From the IMG/VR virus record IMGVR_UViG_2537561946_000006: a stretch of 64,000 nucleotides of DNA; one strand, given 5' to 3'. A model generated the notes under the pieces. It had not been told where the DNA came from, did no database searches, and worked only from the letters and a program-made list of their open reading frames with translations. This DNA comes from a virus (lineage: Duplodnaviria; Heunggongvirae; Uroviricota; Caudoviricetes). Shown here piece after piece: positions 2,731-3,683 of this stretch; positions within the stretch are counted from its first letter, which is position 1; every line of letters begins with the position of its first letter. The translations under genes and the position numbers were made by a program.

Positions 2731-3504
2731 TCAAAAATTAGGTGAGTAACGGACCGGAGACATAGCTCCTTTTTTTCTTAATTCATCTGGTATTTTTTTT
2801 CCAAGATAAAGATTTGCTATTTCAGGTGGGGCTTCTCGACCTTCAAAACCATAGCGAGAACTTTGTGTTGCCTCAAAGTCCGGATCCTCGTCCCAGTATT
2901 GCATCGTAGGGAAATTTTCACGTGTTGATTTGAGCCATTTATCAGCAATGAAAACCCCTCGAACGATCCCCCTTACAGTAGCAAGAATGACTTCTGCTTG
3001 GCTGGCGCGAGAGACATTAATGCGCCAGCTAAATCGAACCGCATCATAAAGCTCTGAATCCTTTGCACTTCTGTTAACGGAAATCATTAATGCTTTATGA
3101 TGAAATGTTATGGTTTCGGGTTGATATGTTGCTATCAACTCTTTGACATGCGCGGCCCCGAATTCATTGCTGCCAGCACCATTCATGATATTCGTTAACC
3201 CAGGGTAGGCATCAATAAGTGCTGCTTCGACTTCGTACGCCGTCTTTTCATCAGTCATTCCGTGTCGATGGATGACATGGATAACCTCAAGTCCTGCTAA
3301 CCTTATTTCTCTAATTTGCTTTAGCTTGTTGCTCAGTAACTCGTCATCATCAGCCGCTGCCACTTCACCGCGCATATGGGCAAATACGCGGTTACCTTTG
3401 CCTTTCCCTACATAGAAGGTGCTTCCGTCCCTAGGATCAATCAATCGGTATACATACCAGCCAAGGTGTTCAATTACTCCAGAAGGAAACTCAGTAATAT
3501 CCAT
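2731..3504 (-). CDS. GIY-YIG nuclease-domain protein with uncharacterised C-terminal domain (cargo gene)
   Basis: N-terminus [28 protein letters not shown] fits GIY-x10-YxG-R; ATG at 3502-3504 (listed ORF extends to a TTG at 3555); lies between pin and att core. Confidence 0.7.
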
Positions 3505-3683
3505 TTTGCAATATCTGTGAATTATTTGTGAGACGTATATTAATGAACATTGCAAGGGCTCACAACTAGTAGTGTTGAGAAAGCCATCGGGAAAATGAGG
3601 CTAACCCTTTGAATTTACATAGCGCAAAAAGATACCTTTCCTCATAATGTGAGCTAATTTTATGTTTCGTTTGATGATCGGGT

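Follow-up and report, generated by a model that had tools for sequence, protein, structure and literature searches.

What does a lone GIY-YIG gene do at the very end of a prophage, wedged against the attachment site? The question is raised by a 64,000-nucleotide stretch of Caudoviricetes DNA (IMG/VR record IMGVR_UViG_2537561946_000006; the whole stretch is called the window here), in which one gene on the minus strand lies between the DNA invertase gene pin and an attachment (att) core of an e14-like prophage. A first-pass annotation, made from the letters alone, had proposed a single-gene, nuclease-based anti-phage function for it, one that "may be undescribed". Judging by its sequence, we put a probability of roughly 95% on the gene being a member of the PD-T4-3 family, now renamed CMoRE—an anti-phage nuclease whose function is already known, and not new.

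Identity of the gene

The features of the gene are as follows.

2731-3504, minus strand: CMoRE (PD-T4-3) coding region, 257 amino acids, ATG start (PADLOC, PDB and RefSeq matches)
3505-3555, minus strand: in-frame upstream extension of the maximal open reading frame (TTG at 3555), probably a 5' untranslated leader
3175-3504, minus strand: GIY-YIG nuclease region with the GIYxY-YIG motif (Pfam PF22945; residue check)
3340-3351, minus strand: acidic autoinhibitory loop D52-D53-D54-E55 (the crystallised O157:H7 protein, 9U75, has DDDD)
2734-3132, minus strand: C-terminal modification-sensing domain, about residues 125-257 (98% identity to 9U75/9U8D)

The open reading frame (ORF) at 2731-3555 is unbroken and counts 274 codons from the TTG. 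Its GIY-YIG signature was correctly called at the first pass: the motif is exact, and the LEM-3-like GIY-YIG domain of Pfam (PF22945) matches residues 28-110 with an E-value of 2.4e-14. The true start is almost certainly the ATG at 3504, because the RefSeq orthologue WP_000355484.1 is 774 nt long and the crystallised protein begins MDITEF; the 17 codons upstream, from the TTG, are probably not translated.

Three kinds of search point to one family. The PADLOC scan, a defence-system search that the first-pass annotation had proposed, returned a single, full-length match to PD-T4-3 (PDLC04031; E 2.5e-140, residues 1-256 of 257), and the PHROGs scan returned phrog_5356 (E 4.7e-143). A sequence search of the PDB found two proteins that match end to end—9U75/9U8D at E 3.6e-172 and 9U7U/9U7Z at E 1e-150. 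Compared residue by residue, 253 of 257 positions (98.4%) are identical to the E. coli O157:H7 CMoRE of 9U75/9U8D, with E55D, Q169K, N197H and Q202K as the only differences. All four of these positions also differ between the two crystallised, functional enzymes; E55D leaves the charge of the loop unchanged, and N197 is found in the APEC O1 enzyme as well. General family resources say less: the generic Pfam GIY-YIG model stays below threshold (E 0.081), so that the LEM-3-like model alone passes, the NCBIfam scan of the CMoRE-type protein gave zero matches, and the RefSeq name of this protein type derives from the Pfam domain only.

Domains and functional residues

Every residue named in the structural work on CMoRE occurs in the window protein. 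Numbered from the ATG at 3504, the motif runs Y17-V18-Y19, ten residues, F30-Y31-V32-G33-K34-G35 and then R39; the GIYxY-YIG tyrosines Y17, Y19 and Y31 are encoded at 3412-3456 and R39 at 3388-3390, and H43, E93 and N105 are present too, E93 and N105 being invariant in an alignment with distant homologues. The oligomer-interface residues V92 and L96 are retained. Over its C-terminal half the protein shares 98% identity with 9U8D, the structure with bound ligand, and it keeps Y127, a residue that is invariant even among homologues from jumbo phages. Since the functional residues are kept and the substitutions fall at sites that vary between functional enzymes, we assign the gene to the CMoRE family.

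The first pass had left some 220 residues beyond the signature without a family. That figure was too large, the region being about 130-150 residues, and its function can now be named as the sensing of 5-hydroxymethylcytosine (5hmC) and glucosyl-5hmC (5ghmC); what stands is that its fold has no known relatives. There is also no partner gene—CMoRE is flanked by pin and the att core, and the same solo layout recurs in other genomes. Together with the 98.4% identity, this layout argues for the single-gene, nuclease-based anti-phage function that had been predicted.

Published knowledge of PD-T4-3/CMoRE

The suggestion that the function may be undescribed does not hold: PD-T4-3 was reported as a defence system (PMC9519451), then as a modification-dependent nuclease (PMC12366544), and its structures and mechanism have followed (PMC12923530). 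PD-T4-3 comes from a functional selection against T4 across the E. coli pangenome, with ECOR68 as the source strain for T-even defence (Vassallo 2022; PMC9519451); the main text of that paper, in the parts available to us, names neither PD-T4-3 nor ECOR68 and mentions, among contexts, only "Mu-like phages". In the clinical isolate NILS69, PD-T4-3 is one of only two systems measurably active natively, in this case against Tevenvirinae (bioRxiv 10.1101/2024.12.20.629700). A Capnocytophaga homologue (48% identical) degrades modified T4 DNA and Mom-modified Mu DNA, but not the unmodified DNA of T4-GT7 (PMC12366544).

Liu et al. (Nat Commun 2026; PMC12923530) renamed the protein CMoRE and worked out its mechanism. 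The enzyme depends on Mg2+ or Mn2+ and cuts only DNA carrying 5hmC or 5ghmC, leaving unmodified and 5-methylcytosine (5mC) DNA uncut; cleavage follows the pattern CN11/N9G with 2-nt 3' overhangs and requires two modified cytosines (PMC12923530). Defence is direct rather than abortive and reaches about 5 logs against T2, T4 and T6; the O157:H7 allele gives about 5 logs from its native promoter, the APEC O1 allele gives weak defence when driven by its native promoter, and the proteins for which cleavage or defence was demonstrated are those of O157:H7, APEC O1 and Klebsiella (PMC12923530). The N-terminal GIY-YIG domain has a third tyrosine (GIYxY-YIG; Y17, Y19, Y31), and active-site mutants, including those at the three tyrosines, lose nuclease activity and are impaired in defence (PMC12923530). 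A 15-residue acidic loop between alpha2 and alpha3 is autoinhibitory—the 4A mutant is a toxic enzyme that attacks ordinary DNA—and the tetramer is essential, V92S/L96S abolishing function (PMC12923530). The C-terminal domain, for which no sequence or structural homologue is reported and whose fold is without known relatives, binds 5hm-dCTP, with the 5-hydroxyl bonded to Y127's main-chain oxygen; crystal structures are available for the O157:H7 (9U75, 9U8D) and APEC O1 (9U7U, 9U7Z) enzymes (PMC12923530). From its discovery to its native-host activity, its substrate specificity, its crystal structures and its mechanism, the family was thus described in print between 2022 and 2026.

Proposed mechanism of the window allele

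Given its 98.4% identity to the O157:H7 enzyme, the window protein would be expected to cleave DNA in a 5hmC- or 5ghmC-dependent manner and to defend against T-even phages. It would assemble as a tetramer, a dimer of dimers, in which the C-terminal domain holds 5hmC or glucosyl-5hmC at an edge site and one dimer senses two modified cytosines spaced 21 bp apart. The N-terminal GIYxY-YIG nuclease, with Mg2+ or Mn2+, would then cut between both cytosines in the CN11/N9G pattern, leaving 2-nt 3' overhangs. The acidic loop above the active site would repel unmodified or 5mC DNA, and host DNA would therefore be spared. Incoming T-even phage DNA would be destroyed directly and without abortive infection, at about 5 logs of protection; the lysogen would be protected, and the prophage along with it.

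Two observations weigh against this account. A strict consensus scan for promoters and terminators found no sigma-70 promoter and nothing on the strand of the gene; by eye, a TTGTGA-17 nt-TAATAT arrangement can be spotted within the 178 bp that separate the ATG from the att core, and this is a candidate CMoRE promoter, picked out by eye only. The adjoining prophage DNA also holds a loxP scar that looks engineered, which raises the possibility of manipulation, either of the strain or of the sequence. As far as the letters can tell, no sequence feature contradicts the CMoRE reading itself.

Alternative readings

Of the other explanations, the one that survives best accepts the family and doubts the activity: the gene may be a silent or inactive CMoRE copy, left over in a prophage that is decaying or has been engineered, and may no longer contribute to defence in this strain. 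The missing consensus promoter fits such a copy, as do the fact that the window shows no more of the e14-like prophage than its right end, the loxP scar within the adjacent invertible segment and the weak protection given by the APEC O1 allele from its native promoter. We consider it unlikely: the ORF is intact, the functional residues are all kept and the sequence carries no sign of decay, while the protein is just four substitutions away from an allele that gives about 5 logs with its native promoter, and PD-T4-3 is among only two systems active in the native host NILS69.

A free-standing homing endonuclease of the I-TevI/Seg kind, which would spread its own gene by cutting the cognate empty site, is far less probable still. 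Such an enzyme would share the GIY-YIG catalytic domain; there is a weak match to phrog_314, "homing endonuclease" (E 0.0023), and full-length homologues in jumbo phages are labelled "putative homing nuclease" in databases. However, the phrog_314 match is confined to the catalytic domain, and a Pfam scan of the protein found the GIY-YIG domain alone, with no NUMOD, IENR1 or helix-turn-helix (HTH) DNA-binding module. Moreover, the near-identical protein cuts according to modification, in the loose CN11/N9G pattern, and protects cells against T-even phages, and the gene occupies a prophage-end accessory slot that is used by other defence genes. The homing-endonuclease reading is largely refuted.

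Least probable of all is a nuclease for DNA repair, or with structure-specific activity, of the UvrC, Slx1 or LEM-3 (Ankle1) type, a reading that has the name of the Pfam domain (LEM-3-like) as its basis, but the likeness is limited to the catalytic domain, the partner domains of UvrC are absent, only about 15% of E. coli genomes carry the gene, as prophage cargo, and the orthologue is inactive on unmodified DNA. Homology to a homing endonuclease or a repair enzyme, which the first-pass annotation had singled out as counting against a defence role, was accordingly found only as catalytic-domain likeness (phrog_314, E 0.0023). Both readings are outweighed because the protein is nearly identical to an enzyme of known activity and structure.

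Comparison with known systems

The closest counterparts of the window gene are the O157:H7 and APEC O1 CMoRE and the ECOR68 PD-T4-3, which have the same full-length architecture, GIYxY-YIG motif, acidic loop, sensing domain and single-gene organisation.

EcoKMcrA, encoded by the e14 element of K-12, is a counterpart in position and in class: it lies, in an e14-type prophage, with pinE on one side and the att end on the other, and it is a single-protein type IV modification-dependent restriction enzyme for modified cytosine. Its sequence, however, is unrelated to that of CMoRE, with an NEco reader at the N-terminus joined to an HNH nuclease at the C-terminus; Pfam and PADLOC scans of the window protein gave neither an HNH nor a McrA match. 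The two also differ in strand—mcrA runs with pinE, CMoRE runs opposite to pin—and in target, since EcoKMcrA acts on 5mC or 5hmC in a sequence context and CMoRE leaves 5mC DNA uncut (PMC12923530).

I-TevI, the Seg proteins and UvrC have the catalytic fold and the catalytic Tyr, Arg, Glu and Asn in common with CMoRE. They differ from it by CMoRE's extra tyrosine (GIYxY), 15-residue acidic insert and C-terminal domain, and in how the target is chosen: by base modification in CMoRE, by sequence or DNA lesion in the others. A likeness in substrate is seen with the PvuRts1I/AbaSI family of 5hmC/5ghmC-specific type IV enzymes, of which PvuRts1I also cuts between two modified cytosines about 20-22 bp apart and leaves 2-nt 3' overhangs. 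PvuRts1I joins a PD-(D/E)XK-type nuclease to an SRA-like reader, whereas CMoRE joins a GIY-YIG nuclease to a reader of novel fold. Like CMoRE, PvuRts1I recognises 5hmC and 5ghmC (PMC12923530).

Full-length homologues, at 38-46% identity, are also carried by lytic jumbo phages of Serratia, Pectobacterium, Pantoea, Klebsiella and Pseudomonas, where databases label them "homing nuclease" or hypothetical. Two examples are:

L013:2501-3265: CMoRE homologue of Serratia phage Moabite
L014:2492-3253: CMoRE homologue of Pseudomonas phage OBP

The jumbo-phage proteins keep Y17, Y19, Y31, R39, E93, N105 and Y127, and the acidic autoinhibitory loop is absent from them. They might serve in phage-against-phage competition with rivals that have modified DNA.

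The cargo slot between pin and att

The position of the gene is as the first-pass annotation described it: between pin (2116-2670, plus strand) and the att core (3683-3745), in the slot equivalent to that of mcrA and on the opposite strand. The order in K-12 e14—pinE (plus), mcrA (plus), att (icdC)—agrees, and in the complete relative in TW10722 the genes ymfR, ymfQ, tfaE and pinE are followed by a GIY-YIG gene of identical type.

To survey the slot we used queries made of the pin 3' end, the cargo and the downstream flank, counted at coverage of at least 80% in 5,426 complete E. coli genomes; the counts are rough and no census. The pin-CMoRE-att layout occurs in 808 of these genomes (about 15%), mcrA fills the slot in 329 (K-12 and PK8568 among the strains that have it there), a 215-residue membrane protein in 80 and the two-gene Dazbog system in 9. 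The mcrA position of e14 is a swappable cargo slot, and CMoRE is its commonest occupant; the view of the gene as accessory cargo in a defence position is thereby supported, as mcrA, Dazbog and the 215-residue protein hold the same place elsewhere. Examples of the two less familiar occupants are:

L007:4136-4783, minus strand: 215-residue protein WP_001288820.1 in the pinE-att slot of E. coli RIVM_C040753
L010:10302-12583, plus strand: two-gene Dazbog system in the same slot of E. coli 2017.20.01CC

WP_001288820.1 has one N-terminal transmembrane helix and is otherwise helical and coiled-coil-like; it gave zero matches in Pfam, PADLOC, PHROGs and the PDB, and is a candidate uncharacterised exclusion or defence gene. 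In 2017.20.01CC, the DzbA match has an E-value of 1.6e-54 and is accompanied by a faint Pfam signal for GmrSD_N; that of DzbB stands at E 1.4e-07, alongside a faint signal of the Apea-like HEPN kind. RefSeq lists both genes as hypothetical proteins.

The pin-att interval may serve as a dedicated hotspot for defence, so far unrecognised, in which the modules exchanged are mainly those against phages with modified DNA (McrA, CMoRE, Dazbog)—a tentative idea that we hold to be somewhat less probable than its opposite. Narrow literature searches, weak as evidence of absence, did not find the pin-att slot of e14-like prophages described as a hotspot.

Two variants of the CMoRE locus were seen along the way. 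In E. coli strain 319 (L004:4113-6146, about 300 kb), the annotated CMoRE gene has an IS1203 copy 38 bp upstream of it, and its protein starts differently, with …GAVHTEF rather than MDITEF; both the 5' end and the promoter have probably been disrupted. A further IS1203 is present across that prophage remnant, on its opposite side. In E. coli EH08-18-36 (L005:1870-4192), the genes immediately after CMoRE encode a DNA cytosine methyltransferase and a type II restriction endonuclease, so that a modification-dependent enzyme adjoins a modification-protected system at a prophage end.

The e14-like prophage arm

The window opens within the right arm of an e14-type myovirus prophage, with the following features upstream of CMoRE.

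1-780: fibre tip, in the invertible segment
780-1382, plus strand: tail-fibre assembly gene
1354-1806, minus strand: tail-fibre assembly gene
1818-1982, minus strand: truncated alternative fibre tip
278-2061, no strand: invertible tail-fibre (P-type) segment, with inverted pix sites at 278-303 and 2036-2061
2116-2670, plus strand: pin, pinE-type serine DNA invertase (Pfam Resolvase, E 1.6e-51, and HTH_7)

The layout of the invertible segment matches that of e14 and of the complete e14-like prophage of TW10722, and pin has 92.6% nucleotide identity to K-12 pinE; related genomes annotate it as pinE.

Just inside the right pix site, at 1990-2023, stands a perfect 34-bp loxP site (ATAACTTCGTATAATGTATGCTATACGAAGTTAT). 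Aligned with natural e14-like prophages, a loxP block of about 40 bp (about 1984-2024) replaces about 180 bp in the 5' part of the alternative fibre-tip gene. None of the complete E. coli genomes matches the window across this block, the best coverage being 88%, and neither an FRT site nor a second lox site was found in the window. The block has the look of a scar left by Cre-lox engineering, or of a sequence edited on purpose. Position 1 of the window is the ATG of the tail-fibre gene (1-780), a coincidence hardly to be expected if the window had been placed at random; this start, taken with the loxP site, may mark a contig or construct boundary.

The lambdoid prophage and the pin relic

Beyond the att core lies a second prophage, of lambdoid type, with its integrase at 3798-4823 (minus strand). 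The features that delimit it, and its effector cargo, are:

3683-3745, plus strand: att core, the 3' 63 nt of a serU-type tRNA-Ser(CGA); attR of the e14-like prophage and attL of the lambdoid prophage
53857-53919, plus strand: second att copy, a direct repeat; attR of the lambdoid prophage
53371-53544, plus strand: relic of pin, comprising its 3' end and about 45 nt downstream (blastn, 76% identity to 2538-2711)
49987-50967, 51001-51291, 51685-52260 and 52575-53144: ORFs for type III effectors in the lambdoid right arm (49987-53144)

The att copies form a 63-nt direct repeat (97% identical), and ARAGORN called neither as a complete tRNA. In the tRNA variable arm, the copy at 3683-3745 shows two changes that compensate each other, GTGGGGGCAACTCCAC versus GTAGGGGCAACTCTAC. 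In strain 14EC007 the same lambdoid prophage adjoins an intact tRNA-Ser at the canonical mtfA-serU site; with the two att copies, we therefore read the window as two prophages in tandem on one att. Past 53857-53919 the flank is an AraC-family regulator/pao region, in place of the mtfA (canonical serU neighbourhood) of 14EC007.

The first-pass annotation had offered the right end of the lambdoid prophage as a homologous junction with no gene. A pin relic and no gene are indeed there, and the interval it gave, 53424-53522, lies inside 53371-53544; the relic is only 76% identical, though, and makes a weak comparator. It covers the last 130 or so nucleotides of pin and is followed by about 310 bp that are gene-free up to the att copy, with no ORF of at least 60 amino acids that has a family match. 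In other genomes, too, the pin relic accompanies the lambdoid prophage, and it is therefore a poor empty-site control; intact e14-like prophages with mcrA, Dazbog or the 215-residue gene are much better comparators for the cargo slot. In 14EC007 (L012:3137-3225, within a block common with the window), an annotated ykgJ gene fragment lies at the right end of the lambdoid prophage; it falls near the site where the shared block would place the pin relic. The e14-like prophage of TW10722 sits in a pao/ykgJ neighbourhood. The lambdoid phage may have acquired DNA of the ykgJ area by imprecise excision or by recombination with the end of an e14-like prophage.

The matching annotations in the near-identical prophage of 14EC007 are nleB2, an nleC fragment, nleH (frameshifted there) and nleF; this nle effector cargo marks the host as an attaching-and-effacing (EPEC/EHEC-like) E. 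coli. Genes for tRNA-Met(CAT) and tRNA-Arg(TCT) lie inside the lambdoid prophage at 20364-20616, and tRNA genes of this kind are usual for lambdoid and Stx-type phages.

Implications

The locus adds a near-identical allele to a system that is already well described, and its further uses are modest. The heuristic by which the gene was picked—a nuclease domain joined to an unassignable domain, in a prophage-end cargo slot—does pick real defence genes. One uncharacterised occupant of the slot, the 215-residue protein, emerges as testable. If the pin-att interval is a dedicated hotspot, WP_001288820.1 would be a new anti-phage gene, CMoRE itself still being a known one.
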